DNA of 35,403 nt. Origin: a virus. Taxonomy: Duplodnaviria; Heunggongvirae; Uroviricota; Caudoviricetes. The stretch lies in IMG/VR virus record IMGVR_UViG_2648501437_000004. The stretch is one strand, 5' to 3'. Below are positions 508 through 12,510 of this stretch, piece after piece. Both the position numbers and the translations under genes were made by a program. Under the pieces are notes generated by a model. The model saw only the letters and a program-made list of their open reading frames with translations, was not told the DNA's origin and did not search any database. Within the stretch, counting starts at the first letter, position 1; each line of letters starts with the position of its first letter.

Positions 508-1269
508 TTACGAGGAAGCGTTAGCTATTTGAGCTTGTGTAAATTCGAAACCAGAATTTTGTAACCGTTGCACTAGACGAGGAACTGTTTCACGTACATG
601 GTCGTTGAAATTCAGATACAAAATCCCGTTAGCATCAGAAGGCTGTTCTAGGTGCTGTTTCTGAAGGATTGCTACATTGCTGCGCCCTAAGGACGAAAGA
701 AGCATACCCATCTCGAGTACAACGTTCTGTCTTGCGCGGGGTTGGATTTCTGCTTCACCGGCGCGCTTTGAGTATCCCATATCATCAGGTGTCAAAAGAA
801 CAATCCCGAAACGGGTAGCAGTTTGTCCTTGCCCAATTTCACGTTCAAGCTCTTCAATAATGGTGAGTCCAGTCCCTCCCGTATTCTGCAAAATGAAATG
901 GTCTGGTAATCCAAGTTTATGAAGGATTAGCTCAAGTTGCTCCTTTGCAGTATGGTCATGGCCGTGAACAATGAATATCTTTTTGGGGAGCTCAGATGGC
1001 TGTTCTACGGCTAGTGGTGTTGCCGTGGGCGGCGTTCCTAAATGGGTCATTATTGCAGTTTCAACATTGGGACGTTCTTGAGGGTTACCTTGAAACTGAA
1101 TGGTCCGGGTGGTGTAAAGGTTAACAATTACGCCATTCGTTAAACGATAGCAGTCACAAGTCTCACGCTGTTCGTGGGAAAAATTGGTGAACCCACACTC
1201 CCTCAAAAAGTCAGGAAAAGTTTCTCTCGAGTATGGATAGGTGATCGGCATTTCAGTTAGTTCCTGCAT
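508..1269 (-). CDS. TIR-like domain protein (COG4271/PF10137-type predicted nucleotide-binding TIR-like domain) with an unknown ~90-aa N-terminal domain
   Basis: ATG at 1267-1269 with AAAGGA Shine-Dalgarno. C-terminal half KIFIVHGHDHTAKEQLELILHKLGLPDHFILQ...TIIEELE...FGIVLLTPDDMG matches the FIVHGHD...VLLTPDD signature recalled for this TIR-like family. GC is visibly lower than the adjacent polymerase gene. Confidence 0.55.
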   Translation of the reverse strand: MQELTEMPITYPYSRETFPDFLRECGFTNFSHEQRETCDCYRLTNGVIVNLYTTRTIQFQGNPQERPNVETAIMTHLGTPPTATPLAVEQPSELPKKIFIVHGHDHTAKEQLELILHKLGLPDHFILQNTGGTGLTIIEELEREIGQGQTATRFGIVLLTPDDMGYSKRAGEAEIQPRARQNVVLEMGMLLSSLGRSNVAILQKQHLEQPSDANGILYLNFNDHVRETVPRLVQRLQNSGFEFTQAQIANASS

Positions 1270-1333
1270 AAGTATTGTTCCTTTAATTTACTCGAATTCA
1301 GCATGTCGCCATAGCTCGATAAGGTGAGTTATA

Positions 1334-3397
1334 TCAATCTTTTTTGTAGTGGTACGCCTCAAAACCGCCAGCGTTCAGTAGGATATCGGGCGCCCATTCG
1401 GGGTCAGTGGAGAGAAGCGCGGAAAGCGCTTTATCGTTGAAATCTTCTGTGTCAGGTGCTTCGGTGATCACCTCGTCGTGTACCGTCAGCACAATGCTGT
1501 AACCGGCATCTTCGATAAGCGGCATGTTTCCGGCCAGAATGTCGCGGGCGGCCGCCTGGGTGATGTTCTCCACCAGCTTTCCGCCGTAGGTTTTGAGTCG
1601 TTGCCATTTACGCGAATAAGAGTTAACCCCCATGTAGGTGATATTCCCTTTTTCGATAACCGGAGACGGGTAGCATACAGCGCGTCCGGATGGTAGCTGT
1701 ATGCGCAGCCACGCGCCATCGCGGCGGATTTTAAGATAACCGCAATACAATGTTTTTTGCGGTGTGGCGATTGCAGTGCGGACGGTGCGCTCCAGTTCGT
1801 ACCAGAAATCACAGGTCGCGGGATGCGCCCGGCGCCAGAGACGTTTAAGTGAGTCGCAGGCGATAAATACCCGTTCAGAAAGCCCGTAGGTTGACTTGCG
1901 TTTAACCGATTCGTCGTACCAGCTTTTCGCCTCGCGGATAACATCGCGGGGAATGTTTGGTAGTGCGGCGTTCGCCAGCTCGTCGAGATCGAGACCGTAA
2001 ACCAGTGCAAAAGTGATGAAGGCCGACACACCACCACCATAACCCAGACCGAGTTCCATGACTTTACCGATCTGACGCATGTGTTTATCAACATCATCTG
2101 GTGCAATATCGAAAGCTTTTGCATACGCCAGTTTATATAAGTCCGGACCCGTTCCGGCGTCGTACTCTCTGAATGCATTCAGTTTCCATTCTTCTCCCGC
2201 CAGCCATGCCAGCATACGGCCTTCAATGTTCGACAAGTCACTTACCACCAGCTTTTTGCCTGTTGGCGCGATAATGCAGCCACGTAACGCTGAACTGGTT
2301 AGTTCCATGATATTGTCAAACAGCAGGTCTGCACATCCGGCTTTCAGTGCTTCGATGCCTTCGTCTATTTGTTCCTGTTTTAGTGAAGGGCGGGGAAGGT
2401 TCTGGGGCTGGAATAGCCGTCCGGCCCAACGACCGGTACGTGACGCCCCGCAGAACTGTAGCGTACCGCGTAAGCGCCCGTCGTGGCTTACGCCTTTCAT
2501 CAGTGCCTTGTATTTACTGGTGCTGGTAGTACTGGCCTGCAGGCGGATAGCCAGCAGTTCTTTCACGGCAGATGGTAAATCGGGGTCGGCAATACGACGT
2601 TCCAGAGTACTGCGTTGCATGTCTGGTAGCTCCACACCGTAGGATTCAACAATGTGCTTAATCAACGCGTCTCGTTGTGTGGCTGCCTGCACTTCGCCAT
2701 CAGTCATTTCCTGTGTACGCTTTGCCAGGCGCTTTTGCTCCTGGTCTACCGCTTCGATCGCAGCGCGCGCGAGTTGAATGTCCATGCAGACGCCCCGGTC
2801 GTTGATCTGCTGATCACGATGCCAGAGCGCCAGTTCTGTCCCCTGATAATTCCACTTCGGCAGACGTTTATAGACTTCGCGCATTGCCTCGATATCCAGT
2901 CCGGCGTAAGCAACAAAGCGCCGCCATTCTTCCGGGTGGGTTTTACTGGTGGCCCGACGCAGTTTGCTGTTTTTCGGGCGTGGCTTACAGAACAGCTGGA
3001 TCAGCGCTTTACCTTCTTTGTCCTTCGCTTTGTCTTGCGGGACGCCGAGTATTTCGCAGAGTTCCCCCAGAGACCCCGGGAGGCCGTGCGCCAGCGCCTG
3101 CACCATTGTGTCGCGCCAACGTTCGACTGGCGGTGCCAGGCGCGGCATTGCATAACGCAGAACGGTGCGGTCGAAGTGAGAGTTATGGAAATAAAGCAGG
3201 GTTTCAGGGTCTGCGATTGCTTCGTATAAGCCGTGTGGAATACCACCACCGGCAGTGATATCCCACACGTTTACTGGCCCGTCGTTGATAGCCCATGCGA
3301 AAAGCATCACTTCAACGCCTTCGGCATACGCATGGGTACCGTTCGTAATAGGGATTTCGCAATAGGTTTCCAGGTCGCCCCATAGTATATTGGACAT
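1334..3397 (-). CDS. Family A DNA polymerase (Pol I-like, phage type) with N-terminal 3'-5' exonuclease-like region
   Basis: 687 aa, ATG at 3395-3397 with AAGG Shine-Dalgarno. Motif A-like [21 protein letters not shown], motif B-like [16 protein letters not shown], motif C-like VHDE. Confidence 0.85.
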
Positions 3398-3443
3398 GTG
3401 TTTACCTTGGTTTTTATTCTATTAACTGATTAAAAGATTAATT

Positions 3444-4073
3444 ATGCATATGATCCAATACTTGATTGACCATACAGAGCATCTGGAGAAAATAGCTGGA
3501 TATATTTTTTCATGTTTGATTGTTATGGGAGTCTGGATAAGAAAGATTATTTTTAATTATAAGTATAAAGAGCCTAAATATGTTAAGAAGTTAATTTTAT
3601 ATTTAGTTAAGTATGAACGTTATCTGGATGAGGAGGATAAGAGTGCCATAGAAAAAAGAATAAATGATAAAATTATTCGTGATGCGCTGAAATTGCAATC
3701 ATCTTATAACCGAAGAGATGTTATTTACATTTGCAATAGATTAGAAAAAAGACAGTATATAAATCAGTTGATTAAGCTTCAGAATTATATAGAGAAAGAT
3801 AACGGAGTGTTTTTTATTAATGTTGATTTTTCAGGTTTTTTATTTATTATTAGTCGTCTGTTTTCCTTTCTGTGTTTTGTGCTGTTTACCCTTTTTTCTA
3901 TTATCTGCATTATTTCCATAGGGCAAAATGAAGGCCTTTTAAATTATCTTGTGTATATGGTTATGATAATAGTTTTAGAGACTGTTGGTTTTTGGATGTA
4001 TGATACTTTCCCGTCTAAGAAAAAGATCTGTGAACTAAATAAAGAATTGAGAAAGATTAAGATTCCTGAGTGA
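3444..4073 (+). CDS. AT-rich hypothetical membrane protein (accessory/moron gene)
   Basis: 209-aa ORF opposite to the flanking operon. GC roughly 25-35% by hand count versus about 50-55% around it. Hydrophobic segments IAGYIFSCLIVMGVWI, FLFIISRLFSFLCFVLFTLFSIICIISIG and LVYMVMIIVLETVGFWMY; Lys/Glu-rich soluble middle. Confidence 0.7.
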   Translation: MHMIQYLIDHTEHLEKIAGYIFSCLIVMGVWIRKIIFNYKYKEPKYVKKLILYLVKYERYLDEEDKSAIEKRINDKIIRDALKLQSSYNRRDVIYICNRLEKRQYINQLIKLQNYIEKDNGVFFINVDFSGFLFIISRLFSFLCFVLFTLFSIICIISIGQNEGLLNYLVYMVMIIVLETVGFWMYDTFPSKKKICELNKELRKIKIPE

Positions 4074-4125
4074 TTATACGCCTAATCAGTAGCCCGGTGT
4101 TTAACCGGGCGTCTATGAAGTAGGG

Positions 4126-4674
4126 TTAAATTAGTGCTTCAGCATCAGCACCTTCGCTGATATCGTCGAAATCGTCAGCGCTTGCCACTCCGCCGCCAGC
4201 GAGTGCATCGCCGTCTCGCAGGAACTGGACTCCGCCGAGTGAGGCATTAATGCGTTTACCGAAATTATTGTCCTGTGCCCAGATATCGATAACGGCGTTT
4301 ACATAGCACCCTGCATAGGGACGTCCGTCAGCCTGAATAAGTGGCGAACGATCGCGATCAAGAACAGCTGGGCGCGCTTTGTTAGCAGCATTCAGGAAGA
4401 AATTACCGGGGAAGCCTTCATACTCTGCTTTTTCATCACCATCATGCAGGCACAGATTGAGTTTTTTCTCCAGCTGGTTATAAATGGGCTCCCACTTCTC
4501 TCCCCATTTTTCCTTCGCTACCTGCTTCATAGCTTTACGGATTTCTTCCAGTTGTGGGTGTTTGGGAGACATTAAAAATACTGCGGAGAAACGCGGATCG
4601 CCTTCGCCGTTTACAGTTTTAGCTTCAAACAGAGACGGGAAGGCCAGACGAACATTGTTCAGCTTCAGTTTCAT
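4126..4674 (-). CDS. DUF2815-type phage protein (predicted ssDNA-binding, SSB-like) with acidic C-terminal tail
   Basis: N-terminus MKLKLNNVRLAFPSLFE typical of DUF2815 as recalled; lies in a DUF2800/DUF2815/PolA replication module; acidic C-terminus ADDFDDISEGADAEALI. Confidence 0.7.
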   Translation of the reverse strand: MKLKLNNVRLAFPSLFEAKTVNGEGDPRFSAVFLMSPKHPQLEEIRKAMKQVAKEKWGEKWEPIYNQLEKKLNLCLHDGDEKAEYEGFPGNFFLNAANKARPAVLDRDRSPLIQADGRPYAGCYVNAVIDIWAQDNNFGKRINASLGGVQFLRDGDALAGGGVASADDFDDISEGADAEALI

Positions 4675-4689
4675 GGGTATTTCCTTAAA

Positions 4690-5991
4690 TCAGATGAGGT
4701 CTGCGGTTAGCGTATCGTCGGATACGTCGTCGAAATCATTTACAGGGTTGATATTGAGTGCGGGGCGTGGGTCTGACTCGGGAACGACGGTGGGTTTTCC
4801 ATCAGCTCGTGTTATCAGTGCCTCGACTTTTGACCAACGGCGCGGACTGGCCTTTTTGATAAGTTTTTCGGCTTTTGTGGGACTAATAAGTTTAAAGTCG
4901 AATACTTCTTCAGTTTTGTACCTGAACTGGTCCTTCAGAAGTGCGCGAGCTGCCTCTTCATCACTCCAGGCCCGGTTACCTTGTTTTCCTGTTACCAGTT
5001 TAAACCCCGGTACCGGATGTCCGGCATTGAGTTCATCGTGAACCCGGTCCCGTACTGCCTTTAGCCAGGATTCAATAAAGTCGGCCTGGCTATAGATCTC
5101 TGCAAGCTGCTCAATGGTTAACAGAGGTACACGTGCGCTGGCATTGGTGATTATTTCGCTGACAGGCTTTGTCAGATCTTCAAAATCGCTGGCCGCTGTT
5201 TGTAAATGCTGCATTTTCTGGGCAGTGCAAATAGCTTTTGCTTTACAGAAGCGGCACTGTTTTTCTCCAGGTATGAAGTTTTCCAGCGGTAGTGTCTCAA
5301 TGCCTTCGCATTCAGCAATATTGAGAACAAGGATCGCACTGGTTGCGGCCTCCAGTGCCCGTTCACCGAAAGACTGAAGTTCCTGTACGGTTAACGACCA
5401 TTCTGAAACGTGGTTGAGCCTTGGCTGGTGAATAAATAATCTTACAGTCTCAAAGTCATACAGCATGCTGAATTGTTCGAGAGCACCCAGAGCATACAGT
5501 TGTAGTTGCTCATTTTGTTCTGCATCAATGCGGACGCCTTTGCCATATTTCAGGTCGTGGATTTGTAATTCGTTACCAGCGATGATTATGCCGTCGGCAG
5601 TTCCGAAAGATTCTTCCACACCCGTTATATGTGAGAAATCAACACGTTGTTCAACCAATAGTTCATTATTCTGTGCAAGAGTCCAGACCGTATCAACATA
5701 CCGGCCGACGGCTTCGACCATTTCATCATCCACCTGTGGGCCAGATGTATCATCAGGATTTTCGCGAAGGGGGTATGAGCCGAGAAACATAGAAACATTG
5801 CATCCGGCGTAGTGTTCCGGGTGGCTTTGCCTGTTTCGTAGAACTTTTTCAGCAAGCGCGTGCGCTGTAGTGCCCTCGATTGCAAAAGTTGTTTCTTTAT
5901 CCGGTTGTGTGGCCTCCAGCGCCAGACTTCCTGGGCAGCGCATCCATCGATGCGCTGATGATGGAGAAAGTTGTGCGTGAACGTCTGGCAT
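4690..5991 (-). CDS. DUF2800-type PD-(D/E)XK nuclease (Cas4/RecB-like) with C-terminal Cys cluster and acidic tail
   Basis: N-terminal [15 protein letters not shown] motif; cysteine cluster [10 protein letters not shown]; acidic C-terminus [16 protein letters not shown]; co-directional with polymerase. Confidence 0.75.
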
Positions 5992-7909: not shown

Positions 7910-8099
7910 CAACTTGCGTGACTTATCAGTTCGTCGCGGTGTTGTCCTCTACGCTTACCGTACGCATACGGACTCGGCGCTTACCTCGATCCCATCGGGT
8001 GCTATTTCGTTTTGCCAGGAGCACTGCGGCTTACCTGTCACGCGGTTCTGTTTGTTAAAGAGCTGGTATTAGAAAATGCATTAATTATGCGGTATCGTA

Positions 8100-8128
8100 T
8101 TTATATGCGTTATGGGATTTTGTGTCAA
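8100..8128 (-). promoter_or_regulatory. PL-like leftward promoter with near-consensus sigma70 elements
   Basis: Minus strand reads TTGACA (plus 8123-8128), 17-nt spacer, TATAAA (plus 8100-8105). Overlapped by two tandem copies of a 17-bp operator-like motif (8086-8102, 8104-8120). Lies just past the cI terminator. Confidence 0.6.
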
Positions 8129-8212: not shown

Positions 8213-8887
8213 TTAGTACATGCGTAGCGCGGATTTGGCGATCCCCGCCACGTAATGGATTTTTTCAATGTTTTCGCGTGGTACTCTGACTGGTGGATGA
8301 TCTTCATTTACAGACATTAGATGGAACAGGCCATCGCGTTCGAACAAGAAGGTTTTAACCATGACCTCACCGTCCCGGGTAACCACAAGTACTTCATCAC
8401 CAGGAGTGTAGTCGTGGTTGGGTTCGACGATTACGAACTCACCCTCTTTGATTCTAGGCATCATTGAATCACCAACACATTTCAGGGCGTATGCATCTTC
8501 ATCCTTTGTCGGCCAGTATATGAAACCATCACTGCTACCTACTGAATATTGGGTGTCGCTCCAAAGTCCTCCAACGCCTAGCTGAGTGTTTCCCAAAACA
8601 GGTACTTTATTAAACCTAAGAGAAATATACGTTTTTATACCTGTCGCGTCCTCTTTCTCCATTTCTTGAAGGCTCCTTTCTGCCAGGTCTATTGGTGACA
8701 CGTGGAAGTAGTCGGCGATCTGCTTTAACGTTGCGTATTTCGGATCTTTCACCTCTCCTGATACCAGCCTGTGTAGCGTTGGTTGGTTCAGCTGTAACCG
8801 ACGTGCCAGCTCAGTTATCGAGCTTATCTTGGTTTTGTCCATCAGGTACTTGATGTTTTGAGAAAGGATATCGGTAGTATCAATCAT
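8213..8887 (-). CDS. cI: CI-like repressor (N-terminal HTH, C-terminal S24 LexA-like autopeptidase domain)
   Basis: 224 aa; HTH-like TELARRLQLNQPTLHRLVSGE; C-terminal S24 signature CVGDSMMP ... VLVV ... KTF with conserved Ser and Lys. Confidence 0.9.
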   Translation of the reverse strand: MIDTTDILSQNIKYLMDKTKISSITELARRLQLNQPTLHRLVSGEVKDPKYATLKQIADYFHVSPIDLAERSLQEMEKEDATGIKTYISLRFNKVPVLGNTQLGVGGLWSDTQYSVGSSDGFIYWPTKDEDAYALKCVGDSMMPRIKEGEFVIVEPNHDYTPGDEVLVVTRDGEVMVKTFLFERDGLFHLMSVNEDHPPVRVPRENIEKIHYVAGIAKSALRMY

Positions 8888-9028
8888 TTGGATTCATCCA
8901 TGTTGTATACAGGGACGGTGATTATGCGTTATCGGATATTTTAATACAGGATGATATAGAATTGCCGTATTGCTGAATAATCCGTTTTCGTATAAATTTG
9001 CGCTATAGACGAAAGTGGAGACTTAAAT
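8888..9028. promoter_or_regulatory. Divergent PRM/PR-like promoter-operator region between cI and cro-like gene
   Basis: 140-bp intergenic between divergent genes. Contains one copy of the 17-bp motif TATGCGTTATCGGATAT (8923-8939) shared with the PL region, ATACAGG repeats (8906, 8944), and -10-like TATAAA (8991-8996) upstream of the cro-like gene. Confidence 0.5.
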
Positions 9029-9229
9029 ATGTCCGGACTAACACCACAAGAGATGGTCAAAAGCTTGATTGATTCAGGGTATACCCAAAACCAAATTGCC
9101 GAAATTGCAGGCGTGAAGCAGTCTTCTATTAGTCGGCTTCTCACCGGGGTTCATTCTGACCCTCGCTTTTCTACAGTACGTGCGATAGAAAAGCTTTTTC
9201 AGGAAGTGACAGCTAGACAAAAGGCGTAA
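9029..9229 (+). CDS. Cro/CII-like small HTH regulator
   Basis: 66 aa, GGAG Shine-Dalgarno; HTH-like QNQIAEIAGVKQSSISRLLTG; first gene rightward from the immunity region. Confidence 0.7.
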   Translation: MSGLTPQEMVKSLIDSGYTQNQIAEIAGVKQSSISRLLTGVHSDPRFSTVRAIEKLFQEVTARQKA

Positions 9230-9232
9230 CCC

Positions 9233-11494
9233 ATGTCTGATAACAAACCATGGGGAGCTACGCCCGATGAGTGGTTCCACTTCGATCTGGTGTTGGGGAT
9301 GACAGACAGGCTTTTACCTGTGGTGTCCAATCCCTGTGCAGAACTGTCGCCTAATAGCAAGCTGTCTCATAATTTCGGCAAAACCCCCAGTCGCTACAAT
9401 GGCCAACGTAAGGTTGTTGGTATCCCCGACTGGGCTAACTATGTTGTTACGGAAAACGATTTTGCCCGGTGGTCGAACGAACCCGATTACGGTATTTGCG
9501 TTCGTACTGGCGACGGGGTGGTGGCTCTGGACTGCGATATCAATGACGCCGGGATGCAGGAGATCGTACGCAATATTATCCTATCATGCCTGGGGGAACT
9601 TCCGCCACGTCGCTGGCGGGCTGACAGTCATAAATGCCTGTACCTGATTGCTGTTGATGGCGACTACCGTAAACGTGGTCACCGCCTGGAAGGCGAAAAC
9701 AAACAAATAGAGCTGCTCGCTAAGGGCCAGCAGTTTGTGGCTTGTGGTACCCATCCGGCAGGCGAACGTATTCAGTGGGACAGCGGTTTGCCCGGCGAAC
9801 CTCTGAAAATTACATCTGAACAGCTCGAAAGCCTGTGGCAGCGTCTGGCGGATAACTTACCCGTGAAAGACAGCTATACCGCAGGTGCAGGACGTCAGCG
9901 TGACCTTTCCTGTGTTGATCCTTCCGCGACAGATGATGTCGCCGACTGGCTTGACGCGAACGGGTGGACTCTGTCAGTCAGCTCTGATGGTTCCCGCAAT
10001 CTGAAACCGTTTCGGGATGAGTCAGAATACAGCAACGGTTGCAGCGAAACATCCATTAAGTATTTTCCAAAAGGGACGGGGGGATTTGAACAGGGACATT
10101 TTAAAAGCATGCACAACACCGATGCGGGGCTTACTGATGCCGACTGGCTGGAAGGCTACGGCTATACGCAATCCCTGTTCGAAGATCTCACGGTGGCTGA
10201 AGATGGCGATAAGCCTGAATTTACCGATATTAATACAGATATGACAGCTCATTTTCTGGAACGCTTTATCTACGTCATCGAGGGTGACCAGGTATGTGAT
10301 CTTAGCCGACCGCCATATCAGTGCATGATGGATATGAAGTCGTTCAAAAACCTGATGGCGCCTTACCAGTTCCCGCCAGAAGGGAAAGGACAACCAACTC
10401 CCGCAACCAAACGGTGGATAGAGCATCGGCATAAGAAGATTGCTGAGACGACAGGCTATAAGCCCGGTGCGGGACGTATTATCGAGCGTTTCGACGGGCG
10501 GTTTGAGATAAACGAATTTTATATGCCTGAGCATCCACGTACAGCGGATACAAGTAAGGTGTCCACGTTCCTTAATCATATGGCGTATCTGGTACCTGAT
10601 GCCTGGCAGCGCGAGTTTTTCATCGCCCGTCTGGGGTGGATGGTTCAGCGTCCGGAGCGTCGATGCCCGATTTCTATTCTGCATGTGGCTACCGCACATG
10701 GTACGGGCAGAGGATGGGTCAGTCAGTTAATGGAGCGCGTGCTTGGCCCGTGGAACTGTGCTCGTACTCGCATGAAGATCCTGTGCGATAACCAGTTCCA
10801 TGACTATCTGTACAATACACTTCTATGCACCATTGACGAGGTGCGCGAAAACGATAAGCGGTATGAGGTGAACGATAAGATCCGTGACGTGCTGACAGAA
10901 CCACGGTTTGAAGTGAACCGCAAATATGGCAGCAAAAAAACGATGGATATATACACCGGCTTTCTGTTCTACACCAACCACTTTGATGCGCTGGCGCTGC
11001 CAGAGGAAGACCGACGTATAGCTGTGCTGGGGGGCCCTGACTTCGCCGCAACTGAAGAGCATTACGCCAGCCTGTACGGTGCGCTAAGCGACAGCGACTT
11101 TATCGCCCAGGTGTACTGGTATCTAATGGGCGTTGACCTGTCTCGCTTTAACTGGCAGCGCGCCCCCGAGACGAAAGAACGCCTTCTGATGATTGAAAGC
11201 AATAAGAGCGATGTGGAGGCTGCTCTTATTGAAATCCTGGATAATCCGCCTGTGCCAGCAATGACTTATCAACAAATTGTTAACGCAATACTGGCAGAAG
11301 CAGGAATGGATGTAGAAATTAACCAGAAGCATATTACTCGCATTTTGAAAGAAAGAACAAAGCGGGAACCCGTACGCGTAAAAATTGACGGGTTTGTATA
11401 TAGGATTTGGATTCTTGTAAAAAATAACGATTTCAGCAACGAAGAATTGCGCGAAATATATAAATCTTGCGAAATTTTGCAATCTGGATTGTAA
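9233..11494 (+). CDS. Primase-polymerase (PrimPol-like) replication initiation protein with C-terminal P4/D5-like region
   Basis: 753 aa; N-terminal prim-pol-like motifs YGICVRTGDGVVALDCDIND and CGTHPAGERIQW; the P-loop-like stretch HGTGRGW lacks the canonical Lys. Immediately followed by the iteron region. Confidence 0.6.
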   Translation: MSDNKPWGATPDEWFHFDLVLGMTDRLLPVVSNPCAELSPNSKLSHNFGKTPSRYNGQRKVVGIPDWANYVVTENDFARWSNEPDYGICVRTGDGVVALDCDINDAGMQEIVRNIILSCLGELPPRRWRADSHKCLYLIAVDGDYRKRGHRLEGENKQIELLAKGQQFVACGTHPAGERIQWDSGLPGEPLKITSEQLESLWQRLADNLPVKDSYTAGAGRQRDLSCVDPSATDDVADWLDANGWTLSVSSDGSRNLKPFRDESEYSNGCSETSIKYFPKGTGGFEQGHFKSMHNTDAGLTDADWLEGYGYTQSLFEDLTVAEDGDKPEFTDINTDMTAHFLERFIYVIEGDQVCDLSRPPYQCMMDMKSFKNLMAPYQFPPEGKGQPTPATKRWIEHRHKKIAETTGYKPGAGRIIERFDGRFEINEFYMPEHPRTADTSKVSTFLNHMAYLVPDAWQREFFIARLGWMVQRPERRCPISILHVATAHGTGRGWVSQLMERVLGPWNCARTRMKILCDNQFHDYLYNTLLCTIDEVRENDKRYEVNDKIRDVLTEPRFEVNRKYGSKKTMDIYTGFLFYTNHFDALALPEEDRRIAVLGGPDFAATEEHYASLYGALSDSDFIAQVYWYLMGVDLSRFNWQRAPETKERLLMIESNKSDVEAALIEILDNPPVPAMTYQQIVNAILAEAGMDVEINQKHITRILKERTKREPVRVKIDGFVYRIWILVKNNDFSNEELREIYKSCEILQSGL

Positions 11495-11497
11495 AAA

Positions 11498-11762
11498 GGT
11501 GACGGCTAGGTGACGGCAAAACGCTTAAGCGTCACCTTAAAAAGTATATATAAAACAATGGGGAATGTGCTAAAGGTGACAGGTGACGGCAGAATTTAAA
11601 ACTATATACGCGAGAGTGTGTATTTTAGGTATTATACGATCGCTTATATATATATAGAACTAAAATCAACCGTCACCTGTCACCTAAAACATCTTCAGGC
11701 TTTATATGGCGCGCTTTGCAGCAGGTGACGGATATGTAATTACGCGTCACCTAGCCGTCACC
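11498..11762. repeat. Iteron cluster with AT-rich core: putative phage origin of replication
   Basis: Ten copies of core GGTGAC/GTCACC (mostly GGTGACGG/CCGTCACC): forward at 11498, 11509, 11575, 11582, 11724; reverse at 11531, 11672, 11679, 11746, 11757. They flank AT-rich tracts 11541-11560 and 11611-11668 (tatatatatatag). Confidence 0.6.
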
Positions 11763-11811
11763 CGGAAATTAACTTGCAAATATTTGCAAATAACTAGCTG
11801 GAGTAAACAAC

Positions 11812-12042
11812 ATGAAAGTTTCAGGATTAAAAAATCATATCGACGGAAATAACGAAATTACCTGCCCACGCTGCGCTAGTAACAGCGTGTTTATTCGCGA
11901 TGTCGCCATGCGAGCGCATAAACACGACAAAACGGTAGTTATTGACCTCGGCTGCTCTGTTTGCGACGACAATTTCCAGCTTGTGTTATCTGACGGGCCA
12001 AACGTCAGTGTTAGCGGCCACCTGACATTCAACGAGTATTGA
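11812..12042 (+). CDS. Small hypothetical protein with Cys4 zinc-ribbon-like motif
   Basis: 76 aa, GGAG Shine-Dalgarno; CPRC ... CSVC. Confidence 0.5.
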   Translation: MKVSGLKNHIDGNNEITCPRCASNSVFIRDVAMRAHKHDKTVVIDLGCSVCDDNFQLVLSDGPNVSVSGHLTFNEY

Positions 12043-12087
12043 GTAGTAGAAAATTTCCAAACGTAGCAAAACGTAGAGGTCAGAGCT

Positions 12088-12510
12088 ATGCGTAATATTC
12101 AACAGGTTTTAGAGCGCTGGGGTGGCTGGGCAGCGAGTGAAGGTGGTAGCGTCTACTTTCCTCCTGTTGCAGCCGGGTTTAAGAATCTGCTACCCGCGAC
12201 GCAGTCTGGAAGGCTGAAATGCAGTGACAATGACGGTCTTATCATCAACTCCGCTATGAGCTGCCTGAAGAAAAAAGATCCGTATCTGTGCACGCTCCTT
12301 GAGTGGCATTACGTCCAGGCCATGCCCGTGCGGGCGATGGGTGAGAAGCTCGGCGTATCTCACACCCACGTTCTGAAGAGGCTTCAGGCGGCAGAGGGAT
12401 TTATTGACGGTTGCTTAGCCATGCTGGATGTGGTGCTCGAAATGGATCAGTCGGTTCAGTCAAAGCCTCAGGCTATCAGGACTTTGCGTAGGAGCTGCTC
12501 GGCGGCATAA
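12088..12510 (+). CDS. Q: Late-gene antiterminator Q (phage 82 / PF06530-type)
   Basis: N-terminus MRNIQQVLERWGGWAASEGG and overall pattern match recalled phage-82-type Q proteins; positioned just upstream of the lysis cassette. Confidence 0.8.
   Translation: MRNIQQVLERWGGWAASEGGSVYFPPVAAGFKNLLPATQSGRLKCSDNDGLIINSAMSCLKKKDPYLCTLLEWHYVQAMPVRAMGEKLGVSHTHVLKRLQAAEGFIDGCLAMLDVVLEMDQSVQSKPQAIRTLRRSCSAA

Follow-up and report, generated by a model that had tools for sequence, protein, structure and literature searches.

In phage lambda (O and ori-lambda) and in the iteron plasmids (RepA, pi, TrfA), initiator-specific iterons lie beside an AT-rich unwinding region, and among relatives of these replicons the specificities of initiator and origin co-vary. 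In lambda, the O gene itself contains the iterons, and its product brings in the host DnaB by way of P. In the plasmids, the iterons are 17-22-bp direct repeats, which usually act together with DnaA boxes. Here we describe a different arrangement in a 35,403-bp stretch of DNA (hereafter the window) from a virus of the Caudoviricetes (IMG/VR record IMGVR_UViG_2648501437_000004). In contrast to the lambda and plasmid systems, the sites here are 8-bp and inverted, no DnaA-box or integration host factor (IHF) consensus was found among them, and they directly follow the gene of a 753-amino-acid (aa) putative initiator (9233-11494, + strand) that comes with its own helicase and primase. Based on the comparison with related loci, we consider it very likely that the region 11495-11765 is the replication origin of the phage, and that it is read by this adjacent primase-polymerase (prim-pol)/helicase initiator.

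Origins of a similar design are known from the Staphylococcus aureus pathogenicity islands (SaPIs) and the phage-inducible chromosomal islands (PICIs). SaPI Reps bind 6-12 iterons immediately downstream of rep, with the two halves opposed around an AT-rich region, via a C-terminal winged helix; two hexamers are thought to load, and SaPI5 has primase and helicase in one fused protein (PMC9371898). The window resembles these replicons in three respects. Its initiator is predicted in silico to be a superfamily 3 (SF3)-clade helicase with a C-terminal winged helix; ten iterons stand directly after the gene, five on each side of 11590-11669 with the halves opposed; and the AlphaFold2 (AF2) model matches by fold both PriRep1 bound to double-stranded DNA (7pds) and the SaPI5 primase-helicase (7ola). 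However, we found no similarity at the sequence level (the PDB sequence matches are to NrS-1 only), the iterons are 8-9 bp long rather than 5-6 bp, the core alternates purines and pyrimidines, and the P-loop has Arg in place of Lys. The element is also a complete phage with virion genes and not a satellite, and near-identical DNA is present in deposited phage genome records. It is thus a SaPI-like replicon but not a PICI.

Two other systems share the predicted domain order. The alpha protein of satellite P4 joins a primase, an SF3 helicase and a C-terminal winged-helix origin binder in one polypeptide, but its primase is of the TOPRIM/DnaG type (PMC4234260), whereas here we found a PF09250 prim-pol of the archaeo-eukaryotic primase (AEP) type with a fold match to pRN1 (1rni). 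No homology to P4 alpha was detected with either BLASTP (E = 0.33) or hhalign (C-terminal-domain profile against alpha aa 644-777, probability 0.1%). The ORF904 protein of pRN1 and the protein of the Bordetella phage BIP-1/BPP-1 combine an AEP prim-pol, an SF3 helicase and a C-terminal winged helix, and their origins, proposed to be stem-loops of ~100 nt, lie just downstream of the gene and have strong dyad symmetry (PMC4234260).

The genes themselves have been catalogued before. Fagerlund et al. 2022 (PMC8951638) defined the "Eru10" replication region of Shiga toxin (Stx) phages by cI, a PF09250 prim-pol and Q, with the shortest cI-to-stx distance. The gene order in the window (cI, cro, prim-pol and Q, without O/P genes) fits this definition, and one relative carries stx2b just after Q. 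That study catalogues genes only: the terms "iteron" and "origin of replication" are absent from its main text, which describes neither the origin, nor its classes, nor the cassette reported below. Our literature search found these analogues and the Eru10 catalogue and no description of the origin of this family. Elements of this kind are familiar from SaPI/PICI origins, P4, lambda O/ori and SV40-type origins; new here are the origin assignment for the Eru10/DUF5906 prim-pol module, the existence of at least five specificity classes that differ at two base pairs, a wing signature for each iteron class, and a sharply bounded wing-plus-origin cassette.

Layout of the iteron array and its core

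An exact search on both strands of the window located 31 GGTGAC sites, compared with 15.4 +/- 4.4 in dinucleotide-preserving shuffles, and ten of the 31 fall in 11498-11762. Given the rate set by the other 21 sites, only 0.16 would be expected in these 265 bp (P(>=10) = 2.4e-15, or ~8e-11 once multiplied by all possible start positions). The sites lie on the + strand at 11498, 11509, 11575, 11582 and 11724 and on the - strand at 11531, 11672, 11679, 11746 and 11757. When extended to 8-mers, six read GGTGACGG, two GGTGACAG and two GGTGACGC; outside the array, only three such 8-mers occur in the window. The stop codon of the prim-pol gene (TAA) occupies 11492-11494, so the first iteron begins at the fourth nucleotide after it. 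A preliminary description of this DNA had claimed ten GGTGAC copies in both orientations within 265 bp, starting 4 nt past the prim-pol stop, and both statements proved exact.

The array is dyad-symmetric about a centre near 11630. The left outer triplet (11498-11536; + + -) is formed by GGTGACGG at 11498 and 11509 (both +) and GGTGACGC at 11529-11536 (-), with spacings of 11 and 22 bp. It is mirrored by the right outer triplet (11724-11762; + - -), formed by GGTGACGG at 11724 (+), GCGTCACC at 11744-11751 (-) and CCGTCACC at 11755-11762 (-), and the two make up an inverted repeat (I2) with 40-nt arms that are 78% complementary. Further inward, the left doublet (11575-11589; + +; GGTGACAGGTGACGG) holds two sites that are 7 bp apart and have one G in common, and its mirror image is the right doublet (11670-11684; - -; CCGTCACCTGTCACC; inverted repeat I1). 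The earlier claim that the sites form pairs flanking AT-rich tracts therefore needs amending. What had been taken for pairs is a palindromic 3+2 / 2+3 array, and the term "AT-rich" fits only the core and the left spacer, because the spacer at 11685-11723 has a GC content of ~52%.

The presumed unwinding region, which we call the origin core (11590-11669), is 69-74% AT and contains alternating purine-pyrimidine runs. Its GC content is 28-37% in 60-bp windows, and the 80-bp segment from 11591 (74% AT, compared with 50% overall) is the fourth most AT-rich of the whole window. The core includes TATATACGCG, GTGTGTAT, (TA)6, a short inverted repeat TATATAC...GTATATA and one GATC at 11638, and the segment TATATACGCGAGA is invariant in the seven E. 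coli loci that we aligned (see below). The alternating runs in the window core are 12, 10 and 8 nt long; elsewhere in the 35-kb window only two runs reach >=13 nt. In the cores of relatives (L008-L016, L035, L038 and L057 among the loci), such runs are 10-50 nt long. For instance, two Xenorhabdus relatives (L013 and L014) have runs of 44 and 50 nt despite cores of only 57-60% AT. This suggests that the property conserved in the core sequences is pyrimidine-purine alternation, and thus flexible or Z-DNA-prone DNA, rather than plain AT-richness.

We also searched for signals of host-dependent or other known elements. In the array region, there was no DnaA box within <=2 mismatches of TTATCCACA and no IHF consensus at <=1 mismatch, and the only 13-mer-like unwinding repeats were three weak matches with 3 mismatches, which we did not take as meaningful. 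Rfam returned only sub-threshold, miRNA-like hairpin matches (32 bits against a gathering score of 76), and we rejected a known RNA family. A further pair of palindromes encloses the array: TTGCGAAATTTTGCAA at 11467-11482, within the last codons of the prim-pol gene, and TTGCAAATATTTGCAA at 11774-11789, 12 bp past the last iteron. They are symmetric about ~11628 (inverted repeat I3) and are the only two matches to TTGCAA-N4-TTGCAA with <=1 mismatch in the window. Relatives in E. coli, Izhakiella and Serratia retain the right palindrome in part, at the equivalent position; Xenorhabdus lacks it. These palindromes may be a site for an accessory factor.

We found no second iteron cluster, either in the window or across the 40-kb prophage region of E. 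coli O55:H7 DEC5E, the best-matching prophage, which is 99.7% identical in this region; the best other 300 bp contain <=2 sites. This bears on the possibility that the array is a cis-acting replication enhancer like the crr of P4, or a handcuffing or copy-control site, which the initiator would bind while synthesis starts elsewhere. The crr of P4 (L022; X51522, 4291-4590) directly follows the 3' end of the alpha gene. Within 300 bp it has ten type-1 repeats of 8 bp (GGTGAACA/TGTTCACC), which occur in both orientations. The array matches it in count and position, and the sequences are similar: GGTGAACA resembles GGTGACAG, including the tandem pair led by AAAGG. However, P4 needs both ori and crr, 4.5 kb apart, in cis, whereas GGTGAC forms a single cluster here. 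The P4 crr is made of two direct 120-bp repeats and lacks a core of its own, whereas the palindromic array surrounds a conserved, melt-prone core with dyad symmetry. As P4 alpha, in addition, has no protein similarity to the 753-aa protein, we consider a crr-like role unlikely.

Iteron classes in relatives and the protein that may read them

A 391-bp query around the array matched 45 complete E. coli chromosomes, and 15 of these matches were only 60-80% identical in the intergenic region. We aligned six of the 15 divergent loci with the window (seven E. coli loci in all), and included more distant relatives from 13 species-representative genomes and 78 viral contigs. In the six E. coli relatives, the geometry was unchanged while the sites were not: all ten read GGTGGC in three loci and GGTAAC in the other three. 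The same geometry recurs, at 55-100% protein identity, in ~45 related loci that range from E. coli to Xenorhabdus, and in all intact full-length relatives the stop codon is followed directly by an 8-mer in 5-10 copies. Counted from the stop, the sites lie at 4+, 15+, 37-, 81+, 88+, ~176-, ~183-, ~228+, ~250- and ~261-. These offsets are kept in most relatives, including the inner doublet at 81+ and 88+, and their conservation reaches down to 55-58% protein identity.

Altogether, the iterons fall into five classes of the form GGT-NN-C(A/G)G, in which NN is GA, GG, AA, GT or TG, and within each locus all ten sites switch together. When 14 loci (E. coli, Izhakiella, Serratia and Xenorhabdus) are aligned, little other than the iteron positions GGT..C.G is invariant, and the spacers diverge. 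For example, the columns of the left outer triplet are invariant in all 14 save for two class-specific bases. Remoter relatives have other repeats, namely TGACACAG in Limnobaculum and AGTGGGACA, with a different geometry, in Testudinibacter.

One may ask whether the functional element is instead a large DNA hairpin or cruciform, the apparent iterons being merely its paired arms. As single-stranded DNA, the 271-nt region folds into one long hairpin (-55.6 kcal/mol, compared with -26.8 +/- 3.3 for shuffled sequences, z = -8.65). Across the 14 loci, 91-95% of positions pair in the iteron-on-iteron helices, both sides of which show changes, and 90% in the TATATAC/GTATATA helix. Moreover, pRN1 and BIP-1, whose proteins have the same prim-pol, SF3 and winged-helix architecture, have a stem-loop 3' of the gene (PMC4234260). 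The spacer helices, however, are only 48%, 60% and 39% paired, so that pairing outside the iterons (39-60%) is not conserved here. The pRN1 origin, by contrast, is described without iterons and with a conserved stem-loop structure rather than a conserved sequence, whereas in our loci the iterons are conserved and co-vary. A hairpin would need compensation only between partners, yet a single sequence is common to all five partner pairs and to the direct repeats of each arm, all of these change at once, and the iteron class tracks residues in the wing of the protein (see below). The joint switching of all pairs and direct repeats requires a common trans-acting reader, and the symmetry is therefore that of binding sites and not of a conserved hairpin. 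We rejected a hairpin or cruciform as the conserved element, as only the iteron-iteron and TATATA pairings are kept and the strong z-score of the fold is a by-product of the mirrored sites, and we regard this explanation as very unlikely.

The probable reader of the sites is the protein encoded next to them. Pfam assigned it Prim-Pol (PF09250, E = 2.3e-7) and DUF5906 (PF19263, E = 9.6e-14), and the AEP catalytic residues D100, D102 and H174 are invariant. A profile search against PDB sequences matched only the C-terminal (helicase) region of the NrS-1 polymerase (6k9c/6k9e, positions 418-662, E = 1e-19). We used a full-length AF2 model, built with a 36-sequence alignment (mean pLDDT 82), for the fold search; a single-sequence model of aa 600-753 was poor (pLDDT 45) and was left out. 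Foldseek against the PDB retrieved NrS-1, monkeypox virus (MPXV) E5, vaccinia D5, the African swine fever virus PrimPol and the prim-pol domain of pRN1 ORF904 (1rni), in addition to the two SaPI structures 7pds and 7ola. The AEP prim-pol would thus be followed by the SF3 helicase (aa ~418-662) and a winged helix (aa ~648-753). In the model, the C-terminal elements are helix 660-670, strand 676-678, helices 679-690 and 698-709, strands 714-718 and 721-727, and helix 736-752, and aa 660-727 are predicted to adopt a winged-helix topology (H-S-H-H-S-S, pLDDT 82-90). The putative specificity determinant, as placed by AF2 secondary structure, is encoded at 11324-11413 (+ strand) and comprises the recognition helix (aa 698-709) and the beta-hairpin wing (aa 714-727).

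The differences between the iteron classes concentrate in this part of the protein. Over aa 1-702, identity among the seven E. coli proteins is 97-100%; nearly all their differences, which are class-specific, fall in aa 703-746. We computed the mutual information between alignment columns and iteron class. The highest-scoring columns were 714, 722, 715, 725 and 723 for 15 loci, and 723, 714, 715 and 721 for 19 non-redundant haplotypes. In the AF2 model, the class-specific residues are located where the third helix ends and within the beta-hairpin wing (residues 714-725). The wing reads PVR-VK..G(F/I)(V/A)(Y/Q)R in the GGTGAC class, T(D/E/K)LVK..G.(G/A)YRFW (with a 1-residue insertion) in the GGTAAC class, (V/A)K-(L/V)K..G.T(V/L)R in the GGTGGC class and PVR-VK..G.T(N/Q)RFW in the GGTGTC class. 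The same wing signature accompanies the same class in gene-body backgrounds that are ~100%, ~80% and ~69% identical to the window protein, and each of these three backgrounds holds three or four iteron classes.

None of the other neighbours examined (cI, cro, orf76 and Q) tracks the iteron class; the prim-pol wing alone co-varies with it. The 76-aa product of orf76 is 100% and 99% identical between classes, and Q is 100% identical between the window and a GGTGGC-class locus (L005). The cI/cro type of the window also occurs in a GGTAAC-class locus (L003), and other cI/cro types are common to the GG and AA classes. We therefore ruled out cI/Cro, orf76 and Q as readers, since these proteins are identical or shared across iteron classes. 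The same observations speak against assigning the repeats to some other system, such as terminase (pac/cos), integrase arm sites (attP), a partition centromere or cI/Cro operators, although such sites are also short repeats in both orientations. Of cI, cro, orf76, Q and the prim-pol wing, only the last co-varies. The terminase genes lie 3 kb from the array (14720 onward), the integrase gene lies at the extreme left of the prophage, and no ParB-like gene is annotated. Furthermore, the cI/cro types do not follow the iteron class, and the early-promoter region (8888-9028) has no GGTGAC. We find such an assignment hardly credible.

The wing and the array appear to be exchanged together. Between the window and a GGTGGC-class locus (L002), all ~110 differences in 11126-12124 fall within 11342-11758, with zero differences in the 216 bp to the left and the 366 bp to the right. 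Since all differences are confined to this 417-bp segment, which contains the wing codons and the iteron array, we conclude that wing and array were swapped as one cassette. Its left edge lies in the recognition helix, and on the right it stops within the last iteron, at the variable bases. Identity between loci is 97-100% for the gene body, compared with 60-80% for the cassette, which implies that wing codons and array have an older history of their own and travel as one sub-genic unit. The preliminary description had proposed a cassette of an initiator and its cognate origin. The post-stop arrays in all intact relatives, the concerted switching of the sites, the co-variation with the wing and the 417-bp exchangeable segment strongly support this proposal at the level of sequence comparison.

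Several relatives depart from the standard arrangement. In one IMG/VR contig (L028; IMGVR_UViG_2654587792_000007), the prim-pol reading frame is cut short at aa 731, in the C-terminal part to which the wing belongs, and the GGTGAC array is intact 67 nt beyond the premature stop. This may reflect a decaying provirus or a sequencing frameshift. The homologous genes of Erwinia tracheiphila and of an Arsenophonus endosymbiont (L017, L019 and L020) have early in-frame stops and are thus pseudogenes; a scan past the premature stop, which did not reach the true 3' flank, showed no enrichment of iterons. In other IMG/VR contigs (L053, L055, L056 and L059-L099), the N-terminal half of the prim-pol (60-98% identical) is fused to a VapE-type C-terminal half. 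In the ~270-330 bp past the stop, these fusions have 4-10 iterons, which directly follow the gene and have other sequences, namely GTTGAGTA, TGGAACCAC, GTGGTAACA, TGGATACA, TGGTTACA and CTGTCCCA. The downstream-iteron design therefore extends to a second helicase family.

A model for replication and its weak points

By analogy with described systems, we propose the following model. The initiator would be a single polypeptide that combines an AEP primase-polymerase, an SF3 helicase and an origin-binding domain, and its C-terminal winged-helix domain would read the iterons (A)GGTGAC(G/A)(G/C). Monomers would dock on the iterons and two hexamers would self-assemble, one per half-array, as for SaPI Rep/PriRep, P4 alpha, SV40 T-antigen and MPXV E5. 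The 80-bp core of alternating purine-pyrimidine and AT-rich DNA would then melt, and the prim-pol domain would lay the first primers. Finally, the phage's own DNA polymerase, encoded in a leftward early operon, would extend these primers bidirectionally. We infer each of these steps (binding, hexamer loading, melting, priming and bidirectional replication) from the analogues.

A number of points weigh against the assignment of an origin read by this protein. Binding and origin firing are predictions for every member of this family, and location alone is no proof of initiation at the array, because the P4 crr has the same position and is an enhancer, with the start of replication 4.5 kb away. 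The C-terminal domain has no detectable sequence similarity to the origin-binding domain of P4 alpha or to any PDB chain, and its assignment as a winged helix comes from a predicted model. The correspondence between wing and class is also imperfect: the Xenorhabdus GGTGGC loci carry a KKERPW wing, unlike the other GGTGGC lineages, and their GGTTGC sisters carry KTERPW. In addition, part of the reason why wing and array are inherited together could be their physical linkage in a single recombination cassette, and not recognition.

The helicase motif raises a further difficulty. The P-loop AHGTGRGW (aa 488-495, encoded at 10694-10717) has Arg in place of the Walker A Lys that is found in NrS-1 (GTGKG). 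This Arg is invariant in all 36 homologues, and the Walker B motif (IDEV, D535/E536) and EDRRI (R594/R595) are retained. Because an invariant Arg replaces the Walker A Lys, ATP-driven unwinding is not assured. The Lys-to-Arg substitution and the alternating purine-pyrimidine core together could mean that the origin opens by supercoil-driven structural transitions and not by ATP-powered melting.

If the wing does read the iterons, the C-terminal domain (aa ~640-753) would prefer GGTGACGG over GGTGGCAG or GGTAACAG duplexes. The at least five natural initiator/origin pairs differ by two base pairs in an 8-bp site and by a few wing residues, while outside these residues the identity of the 700-aa enzyme reaches up to 100%. 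This series is a dataset for a winged-helix recognition code, and could yield mutually orthogonal replicons that depend little on host factors. It also indicates that these phages recombine not gene by gene but in a sub-genic unit, the wing-plus-origin cassette.

Genomic context and the Eru10 module

Four deposited E. coli phage genomes (vB_EcoM-689R2 and relatives) match the window DNA at 97.5% identity. When we searched the deposited phage genomes with the C-terminal domain (tblastn), only these four vB_EcoM records matched, which implies that no characterised phage carries the domain. In the DEC5E prophage, the left arm encodes a DNA polymerase and DUF2815, DUF2800, VRR-NUC and SNF2 proteins, and the right arm has lysis, terminase, portal, head, contractile-tail and baseplate genes. 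The integrase gene sits beside the host junction. As judged from this gene content, the element is a complete temperate phage of the myovirus type with much of its own replication machinery. Within the window, the leftward early operon (- strand, ~534-5991) includes VRR-NUC (~534-827), the DNA polymerase (~1334-3397), DUF2815 (~4126-4674) and DUF2800 (~4690-5991); these coordinates were carried over from a related locus (L021) by a fixed offset from the prim-pol gene, and the SNF2 gene lies outside the window. Judging by the genes they encode, the operon and the prim-pol/helicase make up a largely self-contained replication set.

The prim-pol gene is preceded by an S24/helix-turn-helix (HTH) cI-like repressor gene (8213-8887, - strand) and a gene for a Cro-like HTH protein (9029-9229, + strand), and the array is followed by orf76 (11812-12042) and the antiterminator gene Q (12088-12510). 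This position suggests another possible role for the array, namely that it serves mainly in transcriptional control, with the prim-pol protein binding past the end of its own gene and blocking or timing read-through from the early rightward promoter into orf76, Q and the late genes (including stx in Stx-carrying relatives). The array does lie inside an apparent cro/prim-pol/orf76/Q transcription unit, no terminator-like site was found between the prim-pol gene and orf76, Q follows at 12088, and in one relative Stx2b is encoded just downstream of Q. Yet ten sites, a melt-prone core and two-fold symmetry far exceed what a roadblock would need. The layout matches the known origins of SF3 initiators, and the phage has no other origin candidate. 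We therefore regard a mainly transcriptional role as highly improbable; control of this kind could accompany origin function as a by-product and need not compete with it. Promoter and terminator predictions in the region gave one weak promoter-like site on the - strand in the end of the gene and one terminator-like site in orf76, and we rejected both, as neither count exceeded that in shuffled sequences.

If the array is the origin, a link between replication and late gene expression can be envisaged, as it sits in the early rightward transcript between the initiator gene and Q. Occupancy of the iterons by the initiator, and its release upon origin firing, could gate read-through into Q and thereby couple the late genes (Stx2b in carriers) to replication. 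We consider this gating possible but rather unlikely. Were it true, the at least five wing/iteron classes would be orthogonal modules of replication and timing that avoid cross-talk among co-resident prophages and satellites.

The array provides a concrete candidate origin for the widespread, uncharacterised Eru10 module of enterobacterial prophages. This module also drives the replication of some Stx2b phages, in which phage replication sets the dosage of the toxin gene. For instance, in STEC435 (L007, 4946-6181), a GGTGGC-class module lies ~340 bp upstream of stx2b, and the order is Q, a methyltransferase-gene fragment, tRNA-Arg and stxA2b. In the O121 strain 201805972 (L002, 4477-5174), an IS1 element is inserted just past a shortened Q gene.

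Lastly, an 18-bp tandem repeat, TATGCGGTATCGGATTTA (1.9 copies), is located at 8086-8120, to the left of the repressor gene. It resembles TATGCGTTATCGGATAT (8923-8941) in the cI-cro intergenic region, and the two are probably the OL- and OR-type operators of this immunity type.

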